A DNA stretch of 60,884 bases from assembly GCA_902780865.1 (NCBI GenBank), contig CACZHC010000008.1, positions 1-60,884 on the forward strand, in the 5' to 3' direction. The position numbers and the translations under genes are program-made. Source of the stretch: an uncultured bacterium. Its GTDB lineage: Bacteria; Verrucomicrobiota; Kiritimatiellia; RFP12; UBA1067. This document shows, one piece after another, positions 3,438 to 44,706 of the stretch. The notes beneath the pieces were generated by a model that did no database searches, was not told the DNA's origin, and saw only the letters and a program-made list of their open reading frames with translations. How positions within the stretch are numbered: position 1 is the first letter of the stretch; each line of letters starts with the position of its first letter.

Positions 3438-3474
3438 ATGCAGCCCCAGCTTCGCGGCGGGGCTGCATTTTCTT
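3438..3474 (+). terminator. Intrinsic terminator after the GH109-like gene
   Basis: A 10-bp perfect stem, ATGCAGCCCC (3438-3447) paired with GGGGCTGCAT (3459-3468), is followed by TTTCTT. Confidence 0.7.
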
Positions 3475-3493
3475 GCTTCGCCACCTTGTCGTT

Positions 3494-3530
3494 TTCTGCT
3501 GCCCCGCAGGCACAGAAAATATGATATAAT
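3494..3530 (+). promoter_or_regulatory. Extended -10 promoter with an upstream inverted repeat (candidate operator)
   Basis: TGATATAAT lies at 3522-3530, 34 nt before the ATG at 3564. An imperfect inverted repeat, TTCTGCTGCC (3494-3503) and GGCACAGAA (3509-3517), sits where a -35 element would be. Confidence 0.45.
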
Positions 3531-3563
3531 ATACAAATTCTGTCAAAGTAGGGCAAAGAAGAG

Positions 3564-5846
3564 ATGAGCGAAGAGGCGGAGAAGAATCTGATCGAAATGG
3601 CCGCGCGCATACGCGAAATGCGCGAGATCATCGGGTATTCTGTTGAGCAGATGGCGGAGAAGACCGAAGTCTCCGTCGAGGACTACAAGGCGGTCGAGGC
3701 GGGGAAGCTCGACCCGACATTCAACTTTCTCCACCAGTGCGCGATTACCTTTGGTGTCGACATCAACGCGCTTTTGAAGGGCCATAGCGCCCACCTTTCC
3801 GGCTACGAAGTGACGCGCGCGGGGCAGGGGCCTCTTACGGCGCACGAGACGCACATGGACATCCGCAACCAGGCAGCGATGTTTCAGAACCGTCTCGGCA
3901 CTCCCTACTGGGTCACCTATAAGTACGACCCCGCGCTCATGGACAAGCCCATCTCCACGACGACCCATGCGGGGCAGGAGTTCGACATTGTCCTCAAGGG
4001 CTCGATGAAGATTCGCGTCGGCGAGCATATTGAGGAGCTTCACGAGGGCGACTCGATCTACTACCGCTCGTCCACGCCGCACGGCATGCTCGCGACCGAC
4101 CCAAACGGCGTCACGTTCCTCGCGATGGTGATGGCGGGAGAAGGCGGCGACACGCACCTCGGCCTCGAGACTGTGCGTCCGCGCCACGAGAAGGTGCCGC
4201 TTGTCGTCGACAAGTTCGTCGAGTGCGAAGAGAACGCGTCGGGCCATCTTGAGCACGTCAAGTTCAAGAATACCGAGTGCTTCAACTTCGCGTTCGACAT
4301 AATCGACGAAATCGCCAACCGCTATCCCGAAAAGCTTGCGCTCCTGCACGTTAGTGACCATTTTACCGAGCGCCGATTCACTTTCCGCGAGATAAGCGAC
4401 ATCTCGAACCAGATGGCGAACTACTTTAGGTCGGTCGGCATCGGGAAGGGCGACAAGGTTCTCTTCATCCTGAAGCGCCACTGGCAGTACTGGCCGGCGG
4501 TTCTCGCGCTCCACAAGGTCGGCGCGATAGTGATTCCCGCAGTGAGCCAGCTCAAGGACCACGATCTCGTCTACCGCTTCAAGGCGGCCGATGTGAAGGC
4601 ACTCGTCTGCACCGCCGACGGCGATGTTGCGCACGAGGCCGAGCTCGCGGAGGCCGAGATCGCGAAGGAGAAGCCCGGATACTCCCTCATCAAGATGATC
4701 GTCAACGGCGACCGCGAGGGTTGGAAGAGCTTCGACCGCGAATACGTCGGCTTCTCGCGCGTCTTTGGACGCGGGCCAGACGCTCCAGGCGGCAAAGACC
4801 CGATGCTCATGTTCTTCACGTCTGGCACGACCGGCTACCCCAAGATGGCGCTCCACAGCCACCTCTACGGCCTCGGCCACTTCGTGACCGCGAAGTACTG
4901 GCACCAGGTCGAGCGCGACGGGCTGCACCTAACGATTTCCGAGACGGGCTGGGCCAAGGCGAGCTGGGGCAAGCTCTACGGCCAGTGGATGTGCGAAGGG
5001 GCTCTTTTCGTCTACGACTTCGCCCGCTTCCACGCCGAGCAGATTCTCCCGATGTTCGCGAAGTACGGAATTACGACTTTCTGCGCTCCGCCGACGATGT
5101 ACCGCATGCTTATTAAAGAGGACATCTCGAAGTACGACTTCTCGTCGGTGCATCACGCGACTACGGCGGGTGAGGCGCTGAACCCCGAGGTGTTCACGCA
5201 GTTCAAGCGCGCGACTGGTCTTTCGATCTACGAGGGCTTCGGCCAGACGGAGACGACTTGTGCGCTCGGCACGCTCTTCGGCGACGAGATCAAGCCGGGC
5301 GCGATGGGTAAGCCGATTCCAGACTACGGCATCGACCTCGTCGACCCCGAGGGGCACTCCGTTCCAGCCGGCGAACACGGCGAGATCGTCGTCAGGACTC
5401 CGCGCTCGAACCCTCACCCCGGTATCTTCGTCGGCTACTACAAAGACGAGGAGAAGACGGCCGAGGCGTGGCGCCACGGATGCTACCACACTGGCGACCT
5501 CGCGTGGAAGGACGAGGACGGATATTACCACTATGTTGGCCGTGCGGACGACGTAATCAAGTCGTCGGGCTACCGCATCGGGCCGTTTGAGATCGAGAAC
5601 GTAATCATGGAACTCCCCTACGTCGTCGAGTGCGGCGTATCTGCCGCGCCCGATCCCGTGCGCGGACAGGTCGTAAAGGCGACGATCAAGCTCGTGAAGG
5701 GCAAGGAGGGGACCGAGGAGCTCAAGAAGGAGATTCAGGAGTACGTGAAGACCCACACGGCTCCCTACAAGTATCCTCGCATCGTCGTCTTCCGCGACGA
5801 GCTTCCGAAGACCGTCTCTGGCAAGATCCAGCGCAACAAGCTGTAA
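3564..5846 (+). CDS. Fusion protein: XRE-type HTH plus cupin (PuuR-like) N-terminus and AMP-forming acyl-CoA synthetase C-terminus
   Basis: The N-terminal ~190 aa has an HTH_3-like segment (IREMREIIGYSVEQMAEKTEVSVEDYKAVEAG) and a cupin-like segment (HAGQEFDIVLKGSMKIRVGEHIEELHEGDSIYY). The rest carries AMP-binding core motifs: FFTSGTTGYPKMALHSH, EGFGQTETT, YHTGDLAWKDEDGYYHYVGRADDVIKSSGYRIGPFEIE and TVSGKIQRNKL. Confidence 0.8.
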   Translation: MSEEAEKNLIEMAARIREMREIIGYSVEQMAEKTEVSVEDYKAVEAGKLDPTFNFLHQCAITFGVDINALLKGHSAHLSGYEVTRAGQGPLTAHETHMDIRNQAAMFQNRLGTPYWVTYKYDPALMDKPISTTTHAGQEFDIVLKGSMKIRVGEHIEELHEGDSIYYRSSTPHGMLATDPNGVTFLAMVMAGEGGDTHLGLETVRPRHEKVPLVVDKFVECEENASGHLEHVKFKNTECFNFAFDIIDEIANRYPEKLALLHVSDHFTERRFTFREISDISNQMANYFRSVGIGKGDKVLFILKRHWQYWPAVLALHKVGAIVIPAVSQLKDHDLVYRFKAADVKALVCTADGDVAHEAELAEAEIAKEKPGYSLIKMIVNGDREGWKSFDREYVGFSRVFGRGPDAPGGKDPMLMFFTSGTTGYPKMALHSHLYGLGHFVTAKYWHQVERDGLHLTISETGWAKASWGKLYGQWMCEGALFVYDFARFHAEQILPMFAKYGITTFCAPPTMYRMLIKEDISKYDFSSVHHATTAGEALNPEVFTQFKRATGLSIYEGFGQTETTCALGTLFGDEIKPGAMGKPIPDYGIDLVDPEGHSVPAGEHGEIVVRTPRSNPHPGIFVGYYKDEEKTAEAWRHGCYHTGDLAWKDEDGYYHYVGRADDVIKSSGYRIGPFEIENVIMELPYVVECGVSAAPDPVRGQVVKATIKLVKGKEGTEELKKEIQEYVKTHTAPYKYPRIVVFRDELPKTVSGKIQRNKL

Positions 5847-5850
5847 GACA

Positions 5851-7941
5851 ATGGAAAAGAAACGCTACCTCGGCATCGACATCGGCTCGACGACTTTCAA
5901 GGCCGTCCTCCTCGGCGAAGACGGCAAGGTGGAGCGCACTGTCTACAAGCGCACCCAGCCCATCGACTCGGGCAAAGTCGCCTGCACAGGCCATTGCTCG
6001 GGGTGCGGCGCTTGCGGCGGCGGCGCCTCGAAGCGCCTTGCGCTCGAGTTCTTGAAGGTTGCGGGAATAACTTCCTTCAAAGATGTCGCGGCGATTGTCG
6101 TGACGGGCAGCCAGATCGTCGAGGACACGCGCAAGTTCATTCCGTTCGACTTCCAGGTCAGCGAAGTGACGGCGCACGTTGCGGGCGCGAAGTTCCTCCA
6201 TCCCGACGTCGACGCCATCATCGACTGCGGCGGTCAGGACTCGAAGTGCATGGTGTACAACCCGACGATGAAGCTCTGGACGAGCATGATGTCGGGCGTT
6301 TGCGCCGCCGGAACGGGCAGCTTTCTCGACTCAGTCGCGGCAAAGCTCGGCGTCAAGATCGAGGACGTCGCGGACAAGGTCAACTACGATTCCGACACCG
6401 AGTTCAGCTCGGTCTGCGCCGTTCTTTCCGCGACGTCGATCAACAAGTTCAAGAACCGCGTTCCTATCGGCGACCTGCTCGCGGGTGCATGCAAGGCCCA
6501 GGCGCGCACGATCCTCAACTCCGTCGGCCAGCTCCTCCTTAACGCGCCTGGCCGCAAGATCCTTTTCCAAGGCGGCGTCGCGTTCAACAGCGCCGTTGCG
6601 TTCTTCCTCAAGAAGCTCACCGGCAGCGAGATCGTCATCCCGCAGTACCACGAGGTGATGGGGGCGCTCGGTGCCGCGGTCATCGCGCGCCAGCTCCACG
6701 ACCTCCGCGACGCCGGCAAGCTCGATCTCGCGAAGGTCGAGTACGAGCCGACGCGCGGCAAGTCAGTCCTGCTCAGAATCAAGTCGACGAAGCGCGATTT
6801 CTTCTCTACGGACAAGTCGAAGCCGCTCGTCTGGCGCAACCTCTTCTTCCCGACCGAGATCCTGAACGCGATGGACTGCCGTGTCCGCACGCTCGAGACG
6901 TACGCCGCGCTCTTCGGGCGCAAGGCCGACAAGGTCAAGGAAGCGCTTGGCAAGGCCGCGCAGAAGGGCTTTGACGGCCAGACTTGCTCGTTCCTCCGCA
7001 TGCTCGAGGGCATGGATCTCGAGAAGCCCGACTACATCGTCTCGACGATGCAGCCCTGCCAGCAGGCCGAGCGTGTGTTCGCCGACCTTGCGCGCGAATA
7101 CAAGATTCCTGATCGCCTCTACTCTCTCCAGACGCCGATCAACGGCCAGAGCCGCGCCGCGATCGAGACGATTGCCGACGGCCTTGCCGAGTCCGTCTCG
7201 CTTATGGAGAAGGCGTTTGGCCGCAAGCTCGACCAAGGCCGTCTCGAAGAGGCGTGTGTCCTCTCGAACGAGGCCGCAGAGCTCGCGCGTCAGTGCACGC
7301 ACCTCAGGTTTACGTCGCCGCCTCTCGTCCGCGGCAGCGAAGCGATCTACAACGCAATAGTGTTTTCGCAGCTCTGGGGTACACAAGATCTTGTGGATAT
7401 CCAGACGGCTTACCGCGACGAGCTCATACAGAAGAAGCTTTGGGCCGAGAAGCGCTACTCTATTGACGACACGCACCGTCTTCTCTGGCTTCATCTGCCG
7501 CCTTTCTACGACACGAAACACCTCACGTTCCTCGAGACGACGTGCAACGCTCCGATAGTATTTGAAGAGACGAATTTCGTCGGTTGGGAGCCGCTTGACC
7601 CGAAGGATCCCTACCGCTCGCTTGCCCGCAAGCTTCTTCAGTCGGGCTTCCTCGATCCAGCGCAGCGCGTTGAATACGTGAAGAAGGCGATTCCCGAAGG
7701 CAAGTTCAACGGCGTAGTTCTCTATACTCACGGCTTCGGGCGCTGCTCGCTCGCGGACCGCGCGTTTTCGAAACTCCTCCGCGAGACGCTTGATTCGATC
7801 GGATGTCCGCTCCTTGCGCTCGAGGGCGATTGCATGGACGCGTCCATCGATCCGTGCTCGACGGTTACGAAGATATCGTCGTTTGTCGAGGCGCTGAACC
7901 TCAGCCGCTACGGTAATATCTTCGGCAAAACCGCGCCATAA
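5851..7941 (+). CDS. Fusion protein: BadF/BadG/BcrA/BcrD-type ATPase (acyl-CoA dehydratase activase) plus 2-hydroxyacyl-CoA dehydratase D-component-like domain
   Basis: The N-terminus has YLGIDIGSTTFKAVLLGEDGKV, DCGGQDSKCMVY, VCAAGTGSFLD and FQGGVAFNSAV (activase/ASKHA fold), plus a Cys-rich insert CTGHCSGCGACGGG. The C-terminal ~380 aa shows the HGD-D pattern (FPTEILNAMDC.., TCSFLRM, LWLHLPPFYD, VLYTHGFGRCSLADR, LLALEGDCMDASIDPCS). The gene starts 5 nt after the upstream stop. Confidence 0.8.
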   Translation: MEKKRYLGIDIGSTTFKAVLLGEDGKVERTVYKRTQPIDSGKVACTGHCSGCGACGGGASKRLALEFLKVAGITSFKDVAAIVVTGSQIVEDTRKFIPFDFQVSEVTAHVAGAKFLHPDVDAIIDCGGQDSKCMVYNPTMKLWTSMMSGVCAAGTGSFLDSVAAKLGVKIEDVADKVNYDSDTEFSSVCAVLSATSINKFKNRVPIGDLLAGACKAQARTILNSVGQLLLNAPGRKILFQGGVAFNSAVAFFLKKLTGSEIVIPQYHEVMGALGAAVIARQLHDLRDAGKLDLAKVEYEPTRGKSVLLRIKSTKRDFFSTDKSKPLVWRNLFFPTEILNAMDCRVRTLETYAALFGRKADKVKEALGKAAQKGFDGQTCSFLRMLEGMDLEKPDYIVSTMQPCQQAERVFADLAREYKIPDRLYSLQTPINGQSRAAIETIADGLAESVSLMEKAFGRKLDQGRLEEACVLSNEAAELARQCTHLRFTSPPLVRGSEAIYNAIVFSQLWGTQDLVDIQTAYRDELIQKKLWAEKRYSIDDTHRLLWLHLPPFYDTKHLTFLETTCNAPIVFEETNFVGWEPLDPKDPYRSLARKLLQSGFLDPAQRVEYVKKAIPEGKFNGVVLYTHGFGRCSLADRAFSKLLRETLDSIGCPLLALEGDCMDASIDPCSTVTKISSFVEALNLSRYGNIFGKTAP

Positions 7942-8001
7942 CGTGTTTCATCGGCGCGTCGGAACTATTGCAAAAAAAATTAATTTTTTTCAAATACCCC
8001 C

Positions 8002-8031
8002 TTGACGCCTTCCCCCATATGGGGGTATAAT
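8002..8031 (+). promoter_or_regulatory. Near-consensus sigma70 promoter with a 14-bp perfect palindrome in the spacer
   Basis: TTGACG (8002-8007), an 18-nt spacer and TATAAT (8026-8031). The spacer contains CCCCCATATGGGGG (8012-8025), a perfect palindrome. A strong SD (AAGGAGG) precedes the ATG at 8062. Confidence 0.65.
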
Positions 8032-9849: not shown

Positions 9850-10557
9850 ATGAAAAAACTTCTCTTGATTGCAGGCGTGGCAGTTGCCCTCGCAGCTTCG
9901 GCTGAGTATACCAGCCAGACGATAGGCGTCACAAAGATTACGACGACGAATCGCAACACGATTGTCGCTGTCCCGTTTGCGTCCCTTACAAATGGAACGG
10001 CGGCTATTTCTGCGAACGATCTTGTTTGCACAAATGGTTTGCCTATTGGGACGACGACGGCAACGACACAGCTTCTCGTGTTCAAGAATGATGGATATCT
10101 TACATGGGAGCTGGCTCCGGAGGGCTGGGTGCCTGTTCCAAATGGGTCTCATACGGCGGACTATGTCAGCGCGAACAGCACCATAGCAAGTGGCGGGGCG
10201 ATTTGGGTTGTCCTTCCGAGTGCGCCGAATCCTTCTCAGGACATTTATATCTATGGTGATTTCACCACAGAGCCGACTCAGTCGAGCATTGCGCCTGGTG
10301 TTGCCAATCTTATAGCAAACCCGTTGCAGTCTGATGCCACAGTTGCATTGTCGGGGACGCCTGCCAAGGGTGATGTAATCATCATCCCCACTGATGGCGC
10401 CGCTGAAAGCTACTCTTACGGCAGAGGCGGTTGGGTAAATAACGGTGTTTCCTTTGATCTTGCATCCATTACTGTCAAGGTTGGGCAGGGTTTCTGGTAT
10501 GTGAGCAAGTCCACTACCGGTGTTACTAAGGTTACTTGGAGTGCCAAGTCCAACTAA
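9850..10557 (+). CDS. Secreted protein of unknown family (P3)
   Basis: SD TAGGAG and signal peptide MKKLLLIAGVAVALAASA. The gene lies 17 nt after P2. The C-terminus reads ..ITVKVGQGFWYVSKSTTGVTKVTWSAKSN. Confidence 0.75.
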   Translation: MKKLLLIAGVAVALAASAEYTSQTIGVTKITTTNRNTIVAVPFASLTNGTAAISANDLVCTNGLPIGTTTATTQLLVFKNDGYLTWELAPEGWVPVPNGSHTADYVSANSTIASGGAIWVVLPSAPNPSQDIYIYGDFTTEPTQSSIAPGVANLIANPLQSDATVALSGTPAKGDVIIIPTDGAAESYSYGRGGWVNNGVSFDLASITVKVGQGFWYVSKSTTGVTKVTWSAKSN

Positions 10558-10592
10558 GTGTAATGCTATATCTTAAAAGAAAGAGAATGCTT

Positions 10593-11105
10593 ATGAAAAA
10601 ATCAATTGTAGCGGCACTTGTGTTTTCGGTGGCTCTTGCTGCCTCTGCCGATGTCCTCTACTGGATGGTAGGCGATAGCATTGCAAACACGGCAACGCAG
10701 AGCGATTCAAGCAGTTTCGCAGCGCTTTATGTGTCTGGCGGTGGCGTGGATCCAGATCCAACGGCGTTAATGACCGTTACTGGAGGACAAGTTTACAATA
10801 TGTATGACCCGGACGGCGGAACGGTTGCATTTTCGTATTCTGGGATAGATGCTTTTAGTTCGGGAGATTATAAATTCTACGTTGAGATCTTGGCAGATGG
10901 TGACTATAAAGGCAGTCAGACCTCCAAGATGTCATACACTGATCTCGCGCCATATATTTATGCTGGCACGGGTCAGCCAACGAGCACAATGCTGGCTGGT
11001 TTTGGTGGCGCAAATACCTCCTACAACGTTCCGGAACCGACGAGCGGGTTGCTGTTCCTCATTGGCGGGATGCTGCTCGGTCTGAAGCGCCGTCGCCAGG
11101 CTTGA
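10593..11105 (+). CDS. PEP-CTERM sorting-domain protein (P4)
   Basis: Signal peptide MKKSIVAALVFSVALAASA (start at 10593, or at 10587 adding ML). The C-terminus VPEPTSGLLFLIGGMLLGLKRRRQA has the PEP motif, a TM helix and a basic tail typical of exosortase substrates. The upstream part of the tracked ORF (10536) overlaps P3 and is unlikely to be translated. Confidence 0.8.
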   Translation: MKKSIVAALVFSVALAASADVLYWMVGDSIANTATQSDSSSFAALYVSGGGVDPDPTALMTVTGGQVYNMYDPDGGTVAFSYSGIDAFSSGDYKFYVEILADGDYKGSQTSKMSYTDLAPYIYAGTGQPTSTMLAGFGGANTSYNVPEPTSGLLFLIGGMLLGLKRRRQA

Positions 11106-17367: not shown

Positions 17368-20300
17368 ATGAAGAGATTGCGCTTTGTTTTGCCTGTCGCC
17401 GTGCTGGTGTCGGCATTTGCATGGAAGGGGCTTTCGGCCGAGACCGTACGTGTCGTCGACTGCGTTCGGGATGCGTCGCTCGACGTCTGGGCCGCGCCCG
17501 ACGTGCGATACGCGCACGAGGTTATGGAGGAGGTCTTCAAGACCGCCGGCCTCGAACCGTCGTGGGGTGTCCCTGGAAATGACGCCTCGCTTCCAGACGA
17601 CGAGGCTGACGTGATTTGCTCCGCCTTCAGAACGCCCGAGCTCCTCGAGAAGTACGACTTCCCGCTCCAGCCGATGAGCCGCATGCACTTCGCGCTCTAC
17701 GCCGCGCCGGAGCGCGCCAAGGAAATGCTTTCCACGAAGATAACCGATTGGCCTAATATGCGTGTCGGGTATTCGCCTGTTTCTCAGGGTCATAATGACG
17801 ACAGGATCAAGTACTTCGAGCACGTGAGGCTCTCGCCGGAATACGTGGAGTTCCCGCGCAGCGCCGACGCGGTGCGGGCGCTCCACAAGGGCAACGTGGA
17901 CGTGCTCTTTCTCTACACGCCCTACAGCCGTCGTCCGAAGGACGTCGTGGAGGTCGTCCCGATTGGCGCGCGAAACGCGTACTTTGCCGTCAAGAAGGGA
18001 AAGCCCGAACTCCTCGCCAAGCTTACCAAGGCGTACCGCGACTTCTACATCGACCGCATCGACAGGGTGGACGAGCTGCGTGAGCGGCATTTCGGCATGC
18101 AGAAGCCCGCGAACCGCGTCCGCATCGCGGCATACAGCCGCGGCGACATCTTCAGCGTATCGCCGGACGGCGATCATTCTGGCGACCTGGAGACCTGGCT
18201 CAAGGCCATCTGCTCGACAGCGCAGTGGGAGCTCGACTATGTCTACGGCGGATACGAGGAGAGCATCGCGGACGTCAAGAAAGGGCGTCTCGACATCATC
18301 GGCGGGCTCAGTTTCGACGTTACGCGGCGCGGGAGCTTCCTCTATCCGCACACGCCCATCGGCATGCTTCGCGTCTATCTCTGGACGCACAAGAGCCTTC
18401 CGTACGAGCCGGGCAACCCGCAGACATGGCGGGGGATGAAGGTCGGTCTCTTGACGGGAACAGTGAGCTCCCAGCGCGTGAAGCGGAATCTCGAGTCGGA
18501 GTCGATTGGGGTGACCTTCAGGGAATACTCGTCGGACCGCGAGATGCTGCGCGCCTACTTTGATGGCGAAATCGACGCATGCGTCGACGTCGAGATGCCC
18601 GAGCTCGCGCACGAGACGGCCCTGCACCTTTGCATCGCGCATCCAATGTACATCTGTGCGGCTTTGGACAGGACGGAGATATTCGCGGCCCTTGAAAATG
18701 CGCTTGACGAGTTGTGCGACGACTTGCCCAAGTACATGCGGATGATCCGCGACCACCACTACGGCTCGCGGAGCGAGGTGGCGACGCTCACGCTCAAGGA
18801 GTCGGAGTGGCTCAACGCCAGGGTCAAGACGGGGGAGCCGGTGTATGTCGACTTCTCCCCGTGGCCATTCAGCATAAGGGACAAGTCTGGGCGCGCGCTG
18901 GGCCTCGCGCTTCTCCTCCAGTCCGAGGTCAAGCGCCGCACGGGGCTTGAGATACGCCCGCAGGTGCAGACCGGCATCTACACCGCGCAGGCGAAGTTCA
19001 TGCGCGGGGAGACGATGTTCTGGATTCCCTATCCGGAGAAGGCCGGAGACGCCGCGTTCGAGGCGAAGTCGGTGTTCTCCATTCCGGTTCCGACGATGGT
19101 CGCGGAATTTTACGGTGCGGAGGACGACATGCTCGAATTCGAGATGCTCGCGAATCCGTCCGCTCCGCCCGAACTCGTCTCGATCCTGAGGAAGACGGTA
19201 ACGAGCATTGACGCCGTGCGCCTCCAGGAGATGTTCATGAGCGCGGCGGCGGAGCGCAAGGTCGTGCACAAGGTGTTCGGACTCACCGGCGACCAGTTGC
19301 TCAAGGTAATCGTCGCCGTGGTGCTTCTCGTGCTGCTTGCGATCGTGATCTACAGCGCGTACATGGTGAGGCTCCTCAAGCGCGAGGCGGTGAAGGCCAA
19401 CACCGCGGCAGCCGCAGCCGAGGAGCACGCCAAGGCGAAGACTCGCTTCCTCGCGATGATGTCGCACGAGCTCCGGACGCCCCTCAACGCCGTCATTGGT
19501 TTTGCCGAGTTCCTCACTCGCAAGGACGTCGACAGCGACAGGCGCCAGGAGTACACGGACGGCATACTCATGAGCGCGAACGCGCTTCTCGACCTCATCA
19601 ACGACATCCTCGACCTCTCCAAGCTCGAGGCCGGCGCGACTGACATGCGCGCAGGCGAGTGCGACATCAAGAAGCTTCTCGACGAACTCCCCGCCATATT
19701 CGGCTACCGCATCAGGCGGCACGGGGTCAAGCTCCTGGTCTCGATAGAGGGCGACAGGATTCCCGTGGTCGGGCTTTCGCAGCAGGGCATGCGCCAGATA
19801 CTGATCAACCTCGTCGGCAACGCGGCGAAGTTCACAAAGTCGGGGTCGATAACGGTCAAGGCCGCGTGGCGCTCCGAGACGAATGCGCTGCACATCGAGG
19901 TTGCGGACACGGGATGCGGCATGTCGGACGAGAAGATGGCGAAGCTGTTCGACCCCTTCGTGCAGGACATCGCGAGCCGCATGGAAAGGACCGCGAACGA
20001 CGCGAAGGGCACCGGGCTCGGGCTTCCGATCGTGAAGCGCATGGTGGACAACGCGCGCGGCACCGTGACGGCAAGGAGCTGTCTCGGGAAGGGAACCGTG
20101 TTCTGCATCGACATACCGGAGCTCGAGGTGGTGAGGCACTCAGAGACCCTCTCCAAGCCGGCGGAGCCCGTGCTTCCCGCCTTGCCCGCAAGAGTGCTTG
20201 TGGTGGATGACATGGAGACCAACCGCAGGATACTCAGGATACACCTGAAGAACCTCGATGTTGCCGAGGTGCGCACGGCCGAGAACGGCGAGGACGCGCT

Positions 20301-20538
20301 GGCGATCATGGCAGACTGGACTCCCGACGTCGTGCTTACCGACATGTGGATGCCGAAGATGGACGGCGCCCAGCTTGCCGAGGCGATGAGAAACGACAGT
20401 CGTTTCGCCGACGTCCCGATCGTCGCCGTCACCGCCGACGTGGACGTGGGGTCGACCTTCGACATCAGTCTTTTCGCGAAGGTGCTCGCCAAGCCCGTTA
20501 CGACGGAAAAGCTCCAGAGCCTTTTCGGCGAGATCTAG
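17368..20538 (+). CDS. Hybrid sensor histidine kinase, BvgS-like (signal peptide, two periplasmic solute-binding-type domains, TM, HisKA, HATPase, receiver)
   Basis: H-box FLAMMSHELRTPLNAVIGFAEFL, N/G boxes (LINLVGNAAKFT, DTGCGMS, GTGLGLPIVKRMV) and a receiver domain (VLVVDDMETNRRIL..VLTDMWMPKMDG). The ~600-aa periplasmic part has PBPb-like repeats before the TM segment LLKVIVAVVLLVLLAIVIYSAY. Confidence 0.9.
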   Translation: MKRLRFVLPVAVLVSAFAWKGLSAETVRVVDCVRDASLDVWAAPDVRYAHEVMEEVFKTAGLEPSWGVPGNDASLPDDEADVICSAFRTPELLEKYDFPLQPMSRMHFALYAAPERAKEMLSTKITDWPNMRVGYSPVSQGHNDDRIKYFEHVRLSPEYVEFPRSADAVRALHKGNVDVLFLYTPYSRRPKDVVEVVPIGARNAYFAVKKGKPELLAKLTKAYRDFYIDRIDRVDELRERHFGMQKPANRVRIAAYSRGDIFSVSPDGDHSGDLETWLKAICSTAQWELDYVYGGYEESIADVKKGRLDIIGGLSFDVTRRGSFLYPHTPIGMLRVYLWTHKSLPYEPGNPQTWRGMKVGLLTGTVSSQRVKRNLESESIGVTFREYSSDREMLRAYFDGEIDACVDVEMPELAHETALHLCIAHPMYICAALDRTEIFAALENALDELCDDLPKYMRMIRDHHYGSRSEVATLTLKESEWLNARVKTGEPVYVDFSPWPFSIRDKSGRALGLALLLQSEVKRRTGLEIRPQVQTGIYTAQAKFMRGETMFWIPYPEKAGDAAFEAKSVFSIPVPTMVAEFYGAEDDMLEFEMLANPSAPPELVSILRKTVTSIDAVRLQEMFMSAAAERKVVHKVFGLTGDQLLKVIVAVVLLVLLAIVIYSAYMVRLLKREAVKANTAAAAAEEHAKAKTRFLAMMSHELRTPLNAVIGFAEFLTRKDVDSDRRQEYTDGILMSANALLDLINDILDLSKLEAGATDMRAGECDIKKLLDELPAIFGYRIRRHGVKLLVSIEGDRIPVVGLSQQGMRQILINLVGNAAKFTKSGSITVKAAWRSETNALHIEVADTGCGMSDEKMAKLFDPFVQDIASRMERTANDAKGTGLGLPIVKRMVDNARGTVTARSCLGKGTVFCIDIPELEVVRHSETLSKPAEPVLPALPARVLVVDDMETNRRILRIHLKNLDVAEVRTAENGEDALAIMADWTPDVVLTDMWMPKMDGAQLAEAMRNDSRFADVPIVAVTADVDVGSTFDISLFAKVLAKPVTTEKLQSLFGEI

Positions 20539-21587: not shown

Positions 21588-21708
21588 CGTTGCTTATCTG
21601 ATGTTAAAAATATAATACCACATTCCCCATTCGAGCGCAAGAGGTACGCTGGCACGACTTTCGCTGCGCGGTTGACCGGCGGTGAAGTGTATGGTAAAAT
21701 TTTTTTCC

Positions 21709-24700
21709 ATGAACAAATCAGCCGTGTTGGGATTGGCCGCCGTGATGGCGACGGCTTTTGCATGGAAGGGCCCTTGTGCCGAGACTGTTCGCGTCGTCGA
21801 TTGCGTGAGGGATCCCTCGCTTGACGTCTGGACCGCTAGCGACGTGCGATACGCCCACTCCGTAATGACGGAGGTCTTCAAGAGGGCGGGGATTGTTCCC
21901 GAATGGACCACTCCCGGCACCAGGGCGTCGACGCCCGAGAACGACGCAGACGTGATATGCTCCGCCTTCAGGACGCCAGAGCTCCTCGAAAAGTACGACT
22001 TCCCGCTTCAGCCGATGAACAAGATGCGCTTCGCGCTGTACGCTGACCCCAAGCGCGCGAAGGACATGATCGCGACGAAGCTGACGGACTGGGACTGGCC
22101 GAACATGAAGGTCGGCTACTCGCCGGTGGCGCAGGGCCAGAGCGACGACCGGACGCGATACTTCGAGCGTGCGCGGCTGTCGCCGGGCGGCTACGTCGAG
22201 TTTCCGACGAGCGCAGGCGCGGTGCAGGCGCTTCTCGGCGGGGACATCGACGCGATCTTCCTGTACACGACCGGGACCTGCATCCCGGACCGGCTCGCGC
22301 AGATCGTCCCGATCGGCACGCGCAATGCCTACTTCGCTGTCAAGAAGGGCAAGCCCGAGCTGCTTGCCGCGCTCGTCAAGGCGTATCGCGACTTCTACAT
22401 AGACGACATCGAGAAGATCGACGCGCTTCGCGAGAAGCACCTCATGCTGCCGAAGCCCGCGAAACGCGTGCGCGTCGCCGCGTACAGCCGCGGCGACATC
22501 TTCAGGGTGTCGCCCGACGGAGTCCATTCGGGCTCGCTTGAAAAGTGGCTGAACGCCGTGTCCTCCTTGACGCGCTGGGACCTCGACTACGTGTATGGCG
22601 GTTTTGACGAGAGCATCGAGGACGTCAAGCGCGGGCGCCTCGATATCGTCGGCGGTCTCAAGTTCGACGACTCGAGGCGCGAGCGCATGCTTTTCCCGCG
22701 CACGCCCATCGGGATGCTGCGACTATACCTCTGGACGCACAAGGGCAATGCTTACAAGCCAGGCGACCCCGGTTCTTGGCGCGGCATGAAGGTCGGGCTT
22801 CTTGCGGGTTCGCTGGGCGGCGCGGGCATGAAGCGCAAGCACGACGCCGAGACTCTCGGCATAGAGTATCGCGAGTATGCGTCGGACAAGGAGATGCTGA
22901 GCGCGTATTTCCGGGGCGAGGTTGACGCCTGTGTCGACGTCGAGATGCCGGAGTTCGCCGGCGAGGTTGCCTTGCATCTCTACTCGTCGCACCCCATGTT
23001 CATCTGCGTCGCGAAGGACAGGCAGGACTTGTTCGACGGGCTTGAGAAGGCCCTCCACGAGACTAGCGACGACCTTGCCAAGTACGTGCGCCTCATAAGC
23101 GAACACCACTACGGCACGAGAAGCGAGATGGCGGCCCTGACGCTCAAGGAGACCGAGTGGCTTAACAAGTGGCGCGAGTCCGGGAAGCCCGTGTACGTCG
23201 ACTTCTCGCCGTGGCCATTCAAGATAAGGGACAAGTCGGGGAAGGCGCTCGAGCTCGCGCTTATGCTGCAGGCCGAGGTGAAACGCCGCACGGGGCTCGT
23301 GCTGCAGCCGCAGGAGCAGACGGAACTCCAGACCGCCGAGGCGAAGTTCATGCGCGGCGAGACGATGTTCTGGATCCCCTATCCCGCGAAGCCATCGGCC
23401 GATGCGACCTTTGGCGCGACGTCAGTCTTCTCGATACCGGTGCCGGCTACCGTGGCCGAGTTCTACGGGGTGAAGAACGGCATCCTCGAGTTCGAGATGT
23501 TCGCGAATCCGTCGGCGCCGCCGGAACTCGTGTCGATCATCGCAAAGGCGGTGACGGGCATCGACGCCGCGCGACTGCAGGAAATGTTCATGAGCGCGGC
23601 TGCGGAGCGCAAGGTCGTGCACAAGGTGTTCGGCCTTACCGGCGGACAGCTTCTGAAGGTGCTCGCGGGAATCTTCGTCGCGATACTTCTCGTGGTGGCG
23701 GTCTACAGCGCGTACATGGCGCGTCTCCTCAGACGCGAGGCGGCAGTGGCGGAGGAGCACGCGATGGCAAAGACGCGCTTCCTCGCGATGATGTCGCACG
23801 AGCTGAGGACGCCGCTCAACGCCGTCATCGGCTTTGCGGAGTTCCTCGCCCGCCCCGACGTCGACAACGACAGGCGCGGCGAGTACACGGCGGGCATCCT
23901 GACTAGCGCCAACGCGCTCCTCGGCCTCATCAACGACATCCTCGACCTCTCCAAGCTCGAGGCCGGCGCGACTGACATGCGCTCCGGCGAGTGCGACGTC
24001 AAGAAGCTACTCGACGAGCTCCCCGCCATATTCGGCTACCGCGTGCGCCGCCATGGCGTCGGGCTTTCCGTCTCGATCGAGGGCGGCGCGAACGCGATCC
24101 CCGTCGTCTCCCTTTCGCAGCAGGGCATGAGGCAGATACTGATCAACCTCGTCGGCAACGCGGCGAAGTTCACCAAGGCGGGAACGATATCCATCAAGGC
24201 CGCGTGGCGTCCCGAGTCCAACACGCTGCACATCGAGGTCGCGGACACTGGATGCGGGATCTCGGACGAAAAGCTGTCGAAGCTGTTCGATCCCTTCGTC
24301 CAGGACATCGCGAGCCGCATGGAGCGGACAGAGAAGGACGCGAAGGGCACGGGGCTCGGGCTTCCGATAGTGAAGCGCATGGTCGACAACGCGCGCGGCA
24401 CCGTCACCGCGCGCAGCAAGCTCGGCGCGGGCACGGTGTTCGTCATCGACATTCCGAATCTCGACGTGGTGAGACGAACGGCCGTGTCCGCGAAGAGCGC
24501 CGCCGCCGTTTCGACCTCCACGCCGCGCCGCGTGCTAATCGTCGACGACATAGAGACGAACCGCAGGATACTCGGCATACACCTCAGGAACCTCGGCGTA
24601 GCGGAGACGCGCGGCGCGGAGAACGGGGAAGAGGCTCTTGCCGTCATGGACGACTGGATGCCGGACCTCGTGCTGACAGACATGTGGATGCCGAAGATGG

Positions 24701-24876
24701 ACGGCGCGCAGCTTGTCGCCGCCATGCGCGGGAACAGCCGCCTGTCGCGGATACCAGTCGTGGCGGTAACGGCGGATGTCGACGTTGGGTCAACTTTCGA
24801 CATAAGGCTTTTCGCGAAAGTGATCGCGAAGCCGGTGACGACAATGAAGCTTCAGCGCCTGTTCGGCGAAATCTAG
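21709..24876 (+). CDS. Hybrid sensor histidine kinase, paralogue of 17368-20538
   Basis: Collinear with the first kinase over its full length, with the same H-box, N/G boxes and receiver. The N-terminus MNKSAVLGLAAVMATAFAWKGPCAETVRVVDCVRD matches MKRLRFVLPVAVLVSAFAWKGLSAETVRVVDCVRD, which supports a start at 21709 rather than the GTG at 21682. Confidence 0.9.
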   Translation: MNKSAVLGLAAVMATAFAWKGPCAETVRVVDCVRDPSLDVWTASDVRYAHSVMTEVFKRAGIVPEWTTPGTRASTPENDADVICSAFRTPELLEKYDFPLQPMNKMRFALYADPKRAKDMIATKLTDWDWPNMKVGYSPVAQGQSDDRTRYFERARLSPGGYVEFPTSAGAVQALLGGDIDAIFLYTTGTCIPDRLAQIVPIGTRNAYFAVKKGKPELLAALVKAYRDFYIDDIEKIDALREKHLMLPKPAKRVRVAAYSRGDIFRVSPDGVHSGSLEKWLNAVSSLTRWDLDYVYGGFDESIEDVKRGRLDIVGGLKFDDSRRERMLFPRTPIGMLRLYLWTHKGNAYKPGDPGSWRGMKVGLLAGSLGGAGMKRKHDAETLGIEYREYASDKEMLSAYFRGEVDACVDVEMPEFAGEVALHLYSSHPMFICVAKDRQDLFDGLEKALHETSDDLAKYVRLISEHHYGTRSEMAALTLKETEWLNKWRESGKPVYVDFSPWPFKIRDKSGKALELALMLQAEVKRRTGLVLQPQEQTELQTAEAKFMRGETMFWIPYPAKPSADATFGATSVFSIPVPATVAEFYGVKNGILEFEMFANPSAPPELVSIIAKAVTGIDAARLQEMFMSAAAERKVVHKVFGLTGGQLLKVLAGIFVAILLVVAVYSAYMARLLRREAAVAEEHAMAKTRFLAMMSHELRTPLNAVIGFAEFLARPDVDNDRRGEYTAGILTSANALLGLINDILDLSKLEAGATDMRSGECDVKKLLDELPAIFGYRVRRHGVGLSVSIEGGANAIPVVSLSQQGMRQILINLVGNAAKFTKAGTISIKAAWRPESNTLHIEVADTGCGISDEKLSKLFDPFVQDIASRMERTEKDAKGTGLGLPIVKRMVDNARGTVTARSKLGAGTVFVIDIPNLDVVRRTAVSAKSAAAVSTSTPRRVLIVDDIETNRRILGIHLRNLGVAETRGAENGEEALAVMDDWMPDLVLTDMWMPKMDGAQLVAAMRGNSRLSRIPVVAVTADVDVGSTFDIRLFAKVIAKPVTTMKLQRLFGEI

Positions 24877-42062: not shown

Positions 42063-43096
42063 AGAAATCGCCTCGAATCCTTTTCGTCGGGAACTTCCTG
42101 ATTCGCCACTGGGGAAACGGGCGGAGCGGAATCGACATGCGCTTGGCGGCGGGGGCGATCAGGAACGGTTGGCAGGTCCTAACCTTTTCAGAGCGCGACA
42201 TTGCGCGCTTCCTCGCGCCGCTTGGATTTATGCGCAGCGTCGGCGCGAAGATGATGAACGACCGGCTTCTAAAGACGGTGCGCAACTGGCGGCCCGACTT
42301 CGTCTTCGTCGCGCACTGCGACTACATTGCGAACGAGACGCTTTTCGCCATGCGCGAGGCGGCGCCAGGCGTCAGGATCGTACACATCAACTGCGACCCT
42401 GTCGAGACCGAACACTGCTGCGCGCAGATTCGACGGCGCATGGACTCGTGCGACGCGATCTTCGTCACTACGGCCGGCGACAAGCTAAGGGAGTGGACGA
42501 CGGGGAAGAACGTCGTAGGATTCTACCCCAATCCGAGCGATCCTTCTTTCGAGGTCGAAGACAATTCCGCCAAGACGGATTTCGAGTACGACCTTTTCTT
42601 CGCGGGGCGGCCAGCAGACGCGGACCAGCGCAAGGCGCTTCTTGGAGACCTTCTCCCCAAGATCGACCCGAAGGTGCGTCTCGGCTTCTTCGGCATGGGC
42701 CGCCCGCTTGTCGTGGGCCGCGCGTACGAGGAGGCGCTCGCCGCGTCGAAGATGGGCCTTTCCATCAACCGCTTCGAGGGCTGGAAGTGGTATGCGTCCG
42801 ATCGCATTACGCACCTCATGGCGAACGGCATCCTGACCTTCCAGTATGACGGCAATTCGATGCAGGACTTCTTCACTAAGGACGAGACCGTGTTTTTCCA
42901 CGCGCCTGACGATCTTGCGGAGAGGATATCCTGGTACAACGTCCACGATGAGACGCGGCGCGTTGTTGCGGCGGCAGGGATGCGGAAGTACCGCCGGCTC
43001 TTCGACGCAAAGCGCGTCGTCAAGTACCTCGTCGAGACGTCGGCGGGCGAATCCCATCCCGAGAAATACGAGTGGGCTAAGGAGGTCTACTCGTGA
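42059..43096 (+). CDS. CgeB-like glycosyltransferase (Glyco_trans_1_2-type)
   Basis: ATGA overlap with the upstream gene. DLFFAGRP..RKALLGDL and the C-terminal VFFHAPDDLAERISWYNVHDETRRVVAAAGMRKYRRLF resemble the CgeB/DUF3880 family. Confidence 0.6.
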   Translation: MKKSPRILFVGNFLIRHWGNGRSGIDMRLAAGAIRNGWQVLTFSERDIARFLAPLGFMRSVGAKMMNDRLLKTVRNWRPDFVFVAHCDYIANETLFAMREAAPGVRIVHINCDPVETEHCCAQIRRRMDSCDAIFVTTAGDKLREWTTGKNVVGFYPNPSDPSFEVEDNSAKTDFEYDLFFAGRPADADQRKALLGDLLPKIDPKVRLGFFGMGRPLVVGRAYEEALAASKMGLSINRFEGWKWYASDRITHLMANGILTFQYDGNSMQDFFTKDETVFFHAPDDLAERISWYNVHDETRRVVAAAGMRKYRRLFDAKRVVKYLVETSAGESHPEKYEWAKEVYS

Positions 43097-44706
43097 TCTT
43101 CGAGGCGTTTAGGAAGTTTCGCTTAGAGCGGCCAAACGCCCCGGCGTTTCTTGTCGCGTCTGGCGACAGGTCGGTGCCGATTTCGTGGAAGCAGTTCACC
43201 GACGACATCGCGGCCGTCGTGTGGGCGATCGGGAAGTACTGCCCCCGCGCGAAGATCGGGATTCTCGGCGAAAACTCCTACCAGTGGATTGTCGCCCATG
43301 CCGCGTGCATTCTCTCTGGCTCGTGCGCCGTTCCGCTTGACGTGAACCTTTCGGCTGACGAGATATGCGAGCGGCTCGCTTTCGTCGACGCGAAGACGCT
43401 TGCCCATTCGTCGCTTCACGGCGACAAGGCGCTCGAGGCCTCGCGCCGGATGCCTAACATCTTGCGCGTCGGGTTCAGCTCGCTTGCCGCCGACAGCTTC
43501 ATGGAGGGCGGTCATACCGACGAGGCGTTTGCGCTTTGGGACGGTTCCGGCCCGCAGCGGACCGAGGAGGACGGCTCCCCGACTGTCGCGACGATGGTCT
43601 TTACGAGCGGGACGACGACCGTTCCGCGCGGCGCTGAGCTTACGCTTGCGGCGATAGAGTCGTTCGCGGAGTCCGGCAGCAAGGTGTTCCAGATGGGCAT
43701 GACCGACCGTTCGCTCATGCTCCTGCCGCTCCACCACATCTTCGGTATCGCTTCGACTTACTTGATGCTTGTGAACGGCGTCGCGCTTGGCGTCTGCCCC
43801 GACTTCAGGCGCATATACGACGCGGTGAACCGATTCCGCGTGGACTTTGCGTTTCTTGTTCCCGCGCTTGCAGACATCCTCGCGACGAAGTGCGAGCAGC
43901 ATGGCGTCAGGGGGCTGAAGTGGGTGCTTGTCGGCGGTGCGCCGATTTCGCCGCGCACGGACGACCGGCTTGCTGCACTCGGCATTCGCGTGCTGACGGG
44001 ATACGGCCTCACCGAGACATCTGCGTTATTTTCGCTTGCGCCGTACGGCGAGCCCTCTCGCCGCGGAAGCGCGGGAAAGGTTTCGCCTCTCCCGAGCGTC
44101 GAGACGAAGGTGTCGGAGAAGGGCGAGCTGATGGTGCGCGGGCCGAATGTAATGCTGCGCTACCATCGTGCGCCCGATGAGACTGTCGCCGTCCTGTCGC
44201 CGGACGGCTGGTTCAAGACGGGCGATCTCGGTCGCATAGACGCTGACGGCTATGTCTGGATCACTGGCCGTGCAAAGCGCACGATCGTCCTCTCGTCTGG
44301 CAAGAAGATCGCGCCAGAGGAGCTTGAGGGACTTCTGCTGTCATGCCCCGGGATACTTGAGGCCGTAGTGACTGGCGAGTCGGAGAGCCGCACGATAACG
44401 GCCGAGATATTCGCGGACATCCCGGAAGTCGAGGTCCGCGGCGTAGTTGCCGCGGTAAACCGGACGCTTCCCCTATATAAGCGCATCAAGCGCGTTGTCG
44501 TGCGCGGCGCGCCTTTCCCGCGCACGTCGTCCGGAAAGATACGGCTTCCCGTCGCGCCACTGCCGAAATCGCGGCAGAAGGGCCGCCATGCGCTGCCTGT
44601 CCCGCGCGGTTGGTGGCTTGCGCTTGCGCTTCTTGCCGTCGTTGCGCTTGCGCTTGTCGTAATCGCCGTATGCTTTATCGTCCATCTTTCGGCGGGGATC
44701 GACTGA
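43093..44706 (+). CDS. AMP-dependent acyl-AMP/acyl-CoA ligase with C-terminal TM anchor
   Basis: GTGA overlap with the upstream stop. Motifs MVFTSGTTTVPRGAELT, TGYGLTETS, FKTGDLGRIDADGYVWITGRAKRTIVLSSGKKIAPEELE and RTSSGKIR. The C-terminal helix is WWLALALLAVVALALVVIAVCFIV. Confidence 0.8.
   Translation: MIFEAFRKFRLERPNAPAFLVASGDRSVPISWKQFTDDIAAVVWAIGKYCPRAKIGILGENSYQWIVAHAACILSGSCAVPLDVNLSADEICERLAFVDAKTLAHSSLHGDKALEASRRMPNILRVGFSSLAADSFMEGGHTDEAFALWDGSGPQRTEEDGSPTVATMVFTSGTTTVPRGAELTLAAIESFAESGSKVFQMGMTDRSLMLLPLHHIFGIASTYLMLVNGVALGVCPDFRRIYDAVNRFRVDFAFLVPALADILATKCEQHGVRGLKWVLVGGAPISPRTDDRLAALGIRVLTGYGLTETSALFSLAPYGEPSRRGSAGKVSPLPSVETKVSEKGELMVRGPNVMLRYHRAPDETVAVLSPDGWFKTGDLGRIDADGYVWITGRAKRTIVLSSGKKIAPEELEGLLLSCPGILEAVVTGESESRTITAEIFADIPEVEVRGVVAAVNRTLPLYKRIKRVVVRGAPFPRTSSGKIRLPVAPLPKSRQKGRHALPVPRGWWLALALLAVVALALVVIAVCFIVHLSAGID

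Follow-up and report, generated by a model that had tools for sequence, protein, structure and literature searches.

An HTH-cupin-acyl-CoA synthetase fusion encoded beside a fused ATPase and HGD-D domain in an uncultured Kiritimatiellia bacterium

The gene pair described here lies on contig CACZHC010000008.1 of an uncultured rumen bacterium of the Kiritimatiellia (GenBank assembly GCA_902780865.1; RFP12, UBA1067), in a stretch of 60,884 nucleotides which was analysed at its full length and is called the window below. Gene 1 fuses a helix-turn-helix (HTH) and cupin module to a MacS-type acyl-CoA synthetase, and gene 2 fuses an archerase-type ATPase to a single HadB-like HGD-D domain. The two may constitute a lineage-specific, co-transcribed pair in which gene 1 would make an acyl-CoA and gene 2 would be a self-contained radical enzyme acting on that thioester, a reading in which we place about even confidence. 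It draws on the domains and their conserved ligands, on the predicted co-transcription in this genome and on a recurrent link of gene 2 to adenylate-forming enzymes. The genes and their parts, in amino acids (aa) where proteins are concerned, are the following:

3564-5846, + strand: gene 1, 760 aa, ATG start; XRE-type HTH, cupin and MacS-type AMP-forming acyl-CoA synthetase
3603-3782, + strand (aa 14-73): HTH_19 domain (XRE-type HTH), Pfam 34.4 bits, cut-off 30.2
3960-4124, + strand (aa 133-187): Cupin_2 barrel, Pfam 36.8 bits, cut-off 27.2
4305-5825, + strand: ANL-superfamily ligase, composed of AMP-binding (aa 248-626) and AMP-binding_C (aa 676-754)
5844-5853, + strand: junction of the two genes, TAA stop (ends 5846), 4-nt spacer GACA, ATG at 5851
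5851-7941, + strand: gene 2, 696 aa, ATG start; archerase-type ATPase fused to one HadB-like HGD-D domain
5869-6687, + strand (aa 7-279): BcrAD_BadFG domain, an ASKHA ATPase of the HgdC/HadI type, Pfam 90.4 bits vs 31.5, E 2e-25
5983-6024, + strand (aa 45-58): clade-specific insert CTGHCSGCGACGGG, with C45, C49, C52 and C55 spaced as CX3CX2CX2C
6841-7896, + strand (aa 331-682): HGD-D domain, Pfam 141.7 bits vs 28.4, E 5e-41

A check of the open reading frames (ORFs) and of Pfam recovered both genes and all the domains which a preliminary description of this DNA had named. Both fusions are genuine, and within their lineages they are not rare. Among the matches listed, the homologue clusters of gene 1, all at least 120 of them, show 89-100% coverage at 69-95% identity, and those of gene 2, again all at least 120, contain both domains, with identities of 82-94%. 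The exact proteins fall into 90% clusters of 562 members (gene 1) and 379 members (gene 2). The homologues are drawn from hundreds of independent contigs, chiefly of gut and rumen Kiritimatiellia and, for gene 2, additionally of Lentisphaeria, and these hundreds of full-length proteins rule out that the fusions arose from assembly frameshifts, a doubt raised in the preliminary description. The same description had called the fusions unusual; they are standard in gut Kiritimatiellia, and activase-dehydratase fusions are a known class. An exception is the species-representative metagenome-assembled genome closest to the window (RUG14632; L001:6440-6550), in which a 20-bp deletion, equivalent to window positions 4305-4324, shifts the frame of gene 1 just past the cupin-ligase linker and so splits the fusion; it is intact in the window and in the loci L002 and L003.

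In this genome genes 1 and 2 are predicted from the sequence to be one bicistronic transcript, because the unit has clear outer boundaries and nothing resembling a promoter or terminator was seen when the junction between the genes was examined. Its borders are as follows:

3447-3475, + strand: terminator-like hairpin and T-run, stem 3447-3465, tail CATTTTCTTG; closes the GH109-like upstream gene and sets the 5' boundary of the unit
3512-3543, + strand: putative promoter region of gene 1, with an extended -10 box TGATATAAT (3522-3530) inside an inverted repeat
3512-3517 and 3538-3543: inverted repeat ACAGAA / TTCTGT with N20 spacing, bracketing the -10 box of gene 1
8002-8031, + strand: strong sigma-70-like promoter, TTGACG-18-TATAAT; opens an unrelated PEP-CTERM cluster and sets the 3' boundary of the unit

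The PEP-CTERM domain itself is found in the final ORF (10536-11105) of the downstream cluster, where the GC content falls to 0.53. Since only a 4-nt spacer separates the stop of gene 1 from the start of gene 2, with no promoter or terminator in between, translation of the two genes is probably coupled. In the paired orthologues the genes overlap (TAATG) or abut (TAA-ATG), the gap ranging from 0 to 4 nt, with 0 nt in the metagenome locus L090. The TGnTATAAT box is also found upstream of other gene 1 homologues and of gene 2 homologues standing alone.

The acyl-CoA synthetase of gene 1 and its HTH-cupin module

The ligase part of gene 1 has all that is expected of the AMP-forming acyl-CoA synthetase proposed earlier. 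AMP-binding scores 219.9 bits in Pfam (vs 29.9, E 6e-65) and AMP-binding_C 70.8 bits (vs 24.5, E 2e-19), and the ANL core motifs A3, A5, A7 and A8 and the A10 catalytic Lys are all there; read from the sequence and aligned to PDB entry 3etc, the motifs are TSGTTGYPK, GFGQTE, YHTGD, GRADDVIKSSGYRIGPFEIE and PKTVSGKIQR. That entry, Macs of M. acetivorans, matches the ligase over 529 residues with 595 bits (E 1e-177). The acyl pocket of Macs, whose preferred substrate is 2-methylbutyrate, is defined by a Gly in place of Acs Trp416 and by an alternative Trp259 (PMC10455477), and both features are kept in gene 1, the Gly in EGFGQTE and the Trp259 equivalent in AKYW. The best NCBIfam model is the MbcS equivalog (NF047394), which reaches 426 bits against a cut-off of 850, so that gene 1 is not an MbcS orthologue; the benzoate-CoA ligase model TIGR02262 gives 217 against 375. 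Judged from these comparisons the ligase is a complete MacS-type enzyme, presumably for short or branched acids, and an orthologue of no named enzyme. Two further AMP-binding enzymes are encoded at 43093-44706 and 48801-50915 of the window; they are 26-29% identical and unrelated to gene 1, one of them is fused to hexapeptide-repeat transferase repeats, and a glycosyltransferase gene lies in the region.

The N-terminal module has the order of an XRE-HTH-cupin regulator, HTH followed by Cupin_2, each over its Pfam threshold; HTH_31 and HTH_3 fall slightly under theirs. In the PDB it comes closest to 1y9q, an HTH_3-cupin regulator (E 2.4e-4), and the HTH gives weak matches to the HTH domains of SinR, DdrO and the 434 repressor. 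The cupin is presumed to be a ligand-sensing or dimerisation module. The label "PuuR-like" given to this part earlier is right for the architecture but not for the family, as the PuuR equivalog model yields 18.9 bits against a cut-off of 211 and aligns to the cupin alone. The module is functional, to judge from the good conservation of the N-terminal 225 aa, which are 53-98% identical among orthologues and paralogues. Members of 220 aa in the 90% cluster of gene 1 (P0512, P0513, P0515) were considered as split HTH-cupin proteins; their sequences are quite unlike gene 1 and to the eye resemble ribulose-phosphate 3-epimerase, so that they are clustering noise of the database. A literature search found no paper on an HTH-cupin module fused to an ANL ligase or acyl-CoA synthetase, and the fusion appears to be undescribed so far.

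Most likely the module makes gene 1 a "trigger enzyme" that would bind DNA or sense a ligand. BirA, an adenylating enzyme doubling as a repressor, has its own acyl-adenylate as co-repressor, and a similar enzyme-repressor role for gene 1 would be an attractive analogy. The self-regulation suggested in the preliminary description found no backing in the promoters: no operator-like repeat is kept among those of orthologous gene 1 copies, and the inverted repeat ACAGAA-N20-TTCTGT of the window, which is not kept in the orthologous promoters L002, L022 and L025, is therefore without support as an operator. On this comparison of sequences, self-regulation by gene 1 would be neither supported nor excluded. 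It is somewhat unlikely, though with appreciable weight, that the module is no transcription factor at all, being instead an appendage with a structural or dimerising function or a sensor with an allosteric effect on the ligase only. The missing operator would agree with this, as would HTH scores which are barely over, or under, the Pfam cut-offs, and the presence of the module in every close ligase homologue listed, whatever the genomic context. The conservation of the 225 aa across orthologues and paralogues and the matches to the XRE recognition-helix region of SinR, DdrO and the 434 repressor speak for a regulator.

Conservation of the pair and recurrent adenylate-forming partners

Gene 2 was found in 106 stretches of GTDB species-representative genomes, and the best 80 of these together with the window make up the 81 loci analysed here. 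The 80 stretches belong to Kiritimatiellia and to Lentisphaeria/Victivallales of gut, rumen and faecal origin, with gene 2 at 61-100% identity. About 10 of the 81 loci, all of crown-group Kiritimatiellia, have gene 1 immediately before gene 2, so that the compact paired module of the preliminary description did not stand the gene-neighbourhood check as a general arrangement. In these roughly 10 paired species-level genomes the flanks vary while the pair stays together, and L090 from a metagenome is a further pair. When the ORFs of the 81 loci were clustered, gene 1 was the only neighbour recurring beside gene 2 beyond close relatives. The clustering was anchored on gene 2, and long antisense shadow ORFs are frequent in this GC-rich DNA; several neighbour "families" were dismissed as such shadow ORFs.

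Gene 2 is solitary in about 70 of the 81 genomes, where it is preceded by a TGnTATAAT promoter of its own and has unrelated housekeeping genes as neighbours. In three such loci (L019, L024, L028) the 16 nt CCAGAGGAACCTGCTG, located about 20 nt upstream of gene 2, equal the last codons of gene 1 in the pairs. This stretch contains an AGGA Shine-Dalgarno-like element and fits either a relic of gene 1 lost from an ancestral pair or a kept ribosome-binding and translation-initiation region. In L088 and L089 genes 1 and 2 are on one strand, about 4 kb apart; the 2-Hacid_dh gene between them in L088 was discarded as a 2-hydroxyacid dehydrogenase, being SerA-like with PGDH models and structures as its best matches. 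A 12-mer, TTCTGTCAAAGT, occurs in the leaders of gene 1 in the window (3538-3549) and of the solitary gene 2 of L047 (7970-7981), similarly spaced downstream of the TGATATAAT box in both and nowhere else in 89 loci. It was rejected as a meaningful shared element, as 16 of 100 shuffles gave at least one chance match.

Gene 1 has several paralogues in unrelated contexts, namely past a ribosomal protein operon near FabH, FabF and FabZ, beside LpxI, and as a tandem duplicate. In L003 a second copy, about 70% identical, is found a few kb upstream (L003:1-1827 and 5714-7993), and in L092 (5001-9541) two HTH-cupin-ligase genes are adjacent, so that the fused architecture has undergone diversification in these genomes. 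In L081 (6001-14117) a gene 1 homologue of 78% identity lies between the ribosomal protein operon and a same-strand run of genes for CTP_transf_like, ThiF, a GDSL/BD-FAE esterase, FabH, FabF and a FabZ-like protein, the Fab genes being a few kb downstream. This context fits the supply of branched primers to fatty-acid synthesis.

Three different kinds of adenylate-forming enzyme are associated with the gene 2 module. The first is the HTH-cupin-MacS-type ligase of the window and of about 10 species, and the second a FadD-like ligase that has no HTH-cupin part and whose gene immediately precedes gene 2 in L021. The third is part of the same chain: four proteins of 1317-1457 aa (P0242, P0391, P0392, P0393) are composed of an AMP-binding (FAAL-like) domain, a PP-binding carrier, the activase and HGD-D. 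Over its C-terminal 680 aa, where the four-Cys insert is retained, P0242 shares 50% identity with gene 2; the other three proteins, of which at least one (P0391) is from Desulfobacterales, are 54-60% identical to P0242. Where such fusions were examined in their contigs (P0392, L086:9001-13236; P0242, L087:9001-13127) they are stand-alone genes. By its sequence such a protein looks like a self-contained acid-loading radical enzyme. The recurrence of these three independent associations argues that the gene 2 module would take as its substrate an acyl thioester which an adenylating enzyme has made.

It is unlikely, but worth weighing, that the adjacency of the two genes is incidental or merely regulatory and that gene 2 has an unrelated housekeeping role. 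Gene 1 would then scavenge branched short-chain acids of the rumen (isobutyrate, 2-methylbutyrate, isovalerate) as primers for branched-chain fatty-acid or amino-acid synthesis. The ligase has MbcS as its best NCBIfam match and Macs as its best PDB match, and MbcS has a role in the scavenging of branched short-chain acids in S. aureus (PMC10026030, PMC11167679). The L081 homologue a few kb upstream of FabH-FabF-FabZ, the diverse neighbours of the paralogues and the solitary state of gene 2 in most genomes point the same way. Against it stand the three different adenylate-forming partners which adjoin or are fused to the gene 2 module, the stop and start codons which abut or overlap in the pairs, and the persistence of the pair though its flanks change.

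The fused ATPase and HGD-D domain of gene 2

The N-terminal domain of gene 2 is related to the activators of 2-hydroxyacyl-CoA dehydratases. Its matches are HadI (4eht, E 7e-26), the DCCP reductase (7yyl_E, E 5e-25) and HgdC (1hux, E 9e-20), and because of the cysteine insert TIGR00241 is passed only narrowly, with 125.6 bits for a cut-off of 125.4. The phosphate and adenosine motifs of the ASKHA fold are GIDIGSTT, DCGGQDSK and GGVAFN. C151 (CAAGTG) and C189 (SS(T/V)C; SSVC in gene 2) align with the Cys of the inter-subunit [4Fe-4S] cluster of HgdC and HadI and are invariant across the gene 2 family, which implies a dimer; both motifs recur in 7yyl_E as well. Foldseek gives the predicted ATPase fold a TM(target) of 0.83-0.86 to HadI and HgdC; the structure model, built on a shallow alignment (pLDDT 67.7, Cys loops unresolved), served fold matching only.

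The cysteine cluster that the preliminary description saw inserted in this ATPase is indeed an insertion: in HMMER alignments CTGHCSGCGACGGG is absent from HgdC (1hux) and HadI (4eht). The cluster ligands, including the four Cys of the insert, are kept in 80-81 of 82 gene 2 family sequences. Among the best 150 representatives of the 50% clusters, CX3CX2CX2C is confined to the gene 2 clade, its fragments, P0242 and P0254. The insert is a candidate for an extra Fe-S or metal site.

For the C-terminal domain a profile search against the PDB gives HadB alpha (3o3m_A), which binds the substrate in 2-hydroxyisocaproyl-CoA dehydratase, over its full length (E 1.8e-21), followed by BzdO (6e-15) and DCCP (6eno, 2.5e-6, C-terminal half only). 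The predicted fold likewise matches HadB, with a TM(target) of 0.70, and BzdO and MbdO next. C379, C403 and C632 align with the three conserved Cys of HadB alpha; C661, in a GDCxD motif common to gene 2 and its unfused relatives of about 420 aa, and C669 are conserved in addition, the whole spacing being C379-x23-C403-x228-C632-x28-C661-x7-C669. The description as a 2-hydroxyacyl-CoA-dehydratase type thus holds for the HGD-D fold and the three Cys; "dehydratase" is not established, because no curated family cut-off is reached (HadB 58.8/750, double-cubane NF040772 40.6/350, BzdO 34.2/448.6). As far as sequence can tell, the two domains also bear out the more general proposal that gene 2 is an Fe-S radical enzyme which is sensitive to oxygen, is driven by ATP and acts on an activated acid.

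Gene 2 belongs to a known general type, within which its own clade is uncharacterised. Archerase ATPases fused to dehydratase- or reductase-type subunits are a class already described (PMC7317905), of which the plasmalogen synthase PlsA is a characterised member (PMC12838417). In the 50%-identity library the full-length architecture of N-terminal activase and C-terminal HGD-D occurs only in P0241 (58%), P0254 (34%), whose cluster contains a Desulfobulbaceae fragment, and P0242. Farther away are fusions of about 700 aa with the two parts in reverse order, and many proteins of about 1400 aa that resemble PlsA. The clade is marked by its four-Cys insert, by having one catalytic domain only, by the conserved C669 and GDCxD cysteines and by sisters fused to FAAL and ACP.

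As we infer it, the pair would work in the following way. The ligase of gene 1, with its MacS/MbcS-like pocket, would turn a short or branched carboxylic acid into its acyl-CoA at the expense of ATP. Gene 2 would be a self-contained member of the benzoyl-CoA reductase/2-hydroxyacyl-CoA dehydratase radical-enzyme superfamily, two chains of which would pair via their ATPase domains and share one [4Fe-4S] cluster (C151, C189). Reduced ferredoxin or flavodoxin would load this cluster, and ATP hydrolysis would drive an electron to the HadB-like three-Cys [4Fe-4S] cluster (C379, C403, C632), possibly with the clade-specific four-Cys site as a relay. The thioester carbonyl of the acyl-CoA would bind to the three-Cys cluster and a ketyl radical would form, which may lose a 2-hydroxyl (dehydration to enoyl-CoA) or be reduced further. 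As no beta-type HGD-D partner is present in the window, the simplest model is that the single catalytic domain forms a homodimer, as that of DCCP does. For dehydration speak HadB as the best structural and sequence match and the fact that HadB and Macs both handle branched C5-C6 substrates, the substrate of HadB being a branched 2-hydroxyacyl-CoA (PMC7317905).

Several observations weigh against this proposal. Besides the solitary loci, the dispersed gene 1 paralogues and the lack of a conserved operator for the HTH, all described above, there are the curated HGD-D cut-offs which gene 2 misses; its closest unfused relatives are likewise uncharacterised. Characterised dehydratases require a second, beta-type HGD-D gene, and tblastn found none in the 60.9-kb window; none adjoins gene 2 in the 81 loci either. 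Finally, the structure model is of low confidence precisely at the Cys sites.

An ATP-stoichiometric reductase, similar to class I benzoyl-CoA reductase, the double-cubane protein or plasmalogen synthase, seems distinctly unlikely to be what gene 2 is in place of a dehydratase. In such an enzyme electrons would flow continuously from the permanently attached ATPase and the extra four-Cys site into the thioester-bound substrate. The covalent 1:1 fusion of the ATPase fits a reductase at least as well as a dehydratase: the activators of dehydratases are separate proteins that act only catalytically, and it is in reductases (PMC7317905) and in the PlsA fusions (PMC12838417) that the ATPase is stably bound or fused. 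C45, C49, C52, C55, C661 and C669 exceed the Cys set of HadB, and about equal scores of the closest unfused relatives on the models for HadB, BzdO and the double-cubane protein also agree with a reductase. So does the finding that in three Victivallales genomes (L052, L053 and L056, e.g. L056:415-1053) the gene immediately preceding gene 2, in the same orientation, encodes a redox-sensing Rex-type repressor (Put_DNA-bind_N and CoA_binding), which hints at NADH-responsive control; a simple pattern search detected no Rex boxes upstream of gene 2. The evidence on the other side is that the best full-length match of the catalytic domain is HadB alpha, that the 7-Cys motif of DCCP is absent, and that gene 2 is without DUF2229 and without the second ATPase domain seen in PlsA-type proteins.

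A bolder idea, to which we give little credence, is that the gene 2 clade is a new self-sufficient, ATP-driven radical reductase of thioesters (acyl-CoA or acyl-ACP) and gene 1 the first ANL "enzyme-repressor". Were it true, the chemistry of the clade would be one not yet described in the superfamily, and DNA binding by gene 1 would be governed by its own acyl-adenylate or acyl-CoA state. The FAAL-ACP-fused relatives in Desulfobacterales suggest the formation of lipids or of aldehyde or ether-lipid precursors.

The Kiritimatiellia and Lentisphaeria of gut and rumen degrade fibre and mucin; they are abundant and for the most part uncultured. The conservation of gene 2 in their genomes (61-100% identity in the best 80 of 106) and its usual own strong promoter suggest an important anaerobic reaction. 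An archerase and a catalytic domain in one chain would be the simplest experimental system for ATP-driven electron injection at ultra-low potential. An HTH-cupin-acyl-CoA synthetase would add a new case to the enzymes that sense or regulate the pathway they belong to, and this fusion may bear on the use of branched short-chain acids by these bacteria in the rumen. Neither fusion has been characterised so far, and the pairing is confined to some lineages.

Elsewhere in the window, two paralogous hybrid histidine kinases of about 1060 aa with SBP_bac_3 sensors and a C-terminal receiver are encoded at 17368-20538 and 21682-24876.

Comparison with known systems

The nearest characterised systems to gene 2 are the (R)-2-hydroxyisocaproyl-CoA dehydratase HadBC/HadI of C. 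difficile and HgdAB/HgdC of A. fermentans, which share with it the ATPase and both cluster Cys; HadB alpha in addition matches the catalytic domain over its full length, with three Cys aligned. Each of these systems is composed of three polypeptides, whereas gene 2 is a single one with a single HGD-D and no beta subunit in the window. Gene 2 differs further from HadI, HgdC and HadB in the CX3CX2CX2C insert and in C661 and C669, and by its low score on the HadB equivalog (58.8 vs 750). The acid is activated by a CoA-transferase in the HadBC and HgdAB systems; here an ATP-dependent ligase would serve.

DCCP and its reductase DCCP-R of C. hydrogenoformans (6eno, 7yyl) resemble gene 2 in that an archerase serves a homodimer built from a single HGD-D-type subunit, and fused one-polypeptide "class III" forms of DCCP have been noted (PMC7317905). 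The DCCP motif, CX19CX18-19CX29CX166-170CX32-34CX32C (PMC7317905), is absent from gene 2, the double_cubane score is 40.6 vs 350 and 6eno matches the C-terminal half only. The Cys spacing and the NF040772 score rule out that gene 2 is a DCCP.

In the anaerobic plasmalogen synthase PlsA/PlsR, activase and reductase/dehydratase-type domains are joined in one chain in many species (PMC12838417). The PlsA-like relatives of about 1400 aa match the ATPase region of gene 2 at 31-39% identity. The one of them that was scanned (P0257) has two ATPase domains, DUF2229 and a marginal HGD-D match, unlike gene 2 with its one BcrAD_BadFG and no DUF2229; the substrate of PlsA is a phospholipid ester, not a thioester. 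With a single activase domain and no DUF2229, gene 2 is not a PlsA/PlsR.

In the class I benzoyl-CoA reductases BzdNOPQ and MbdONPQ the ATPase is permanently associated, as in gene 2. These are four-subunit enzymes, the BzdO score of gene 2 is 34.2 vs 448.6, and the ligase here is MacS-type and not a benzoate-CoA ligase, so that gene 2 does not qualify as a class I benzoyl-CoA reductase.

For gene 1 the counterparts of the ligase are Macs (the 580-aa chain of 3etc) and the MbcS model (525 positions), both of which, unlike gene 1, are without an HTH-cupin module. PuuR and 1y9q of V. cholerae have the XRE-HTH followed by the cupin barrel, as gene 1 does, the similarity to PuuR being marginal. 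BirA is a functional analogue as an enzyme-repressor, with a catalytic fold unrelated to that of gene 1.

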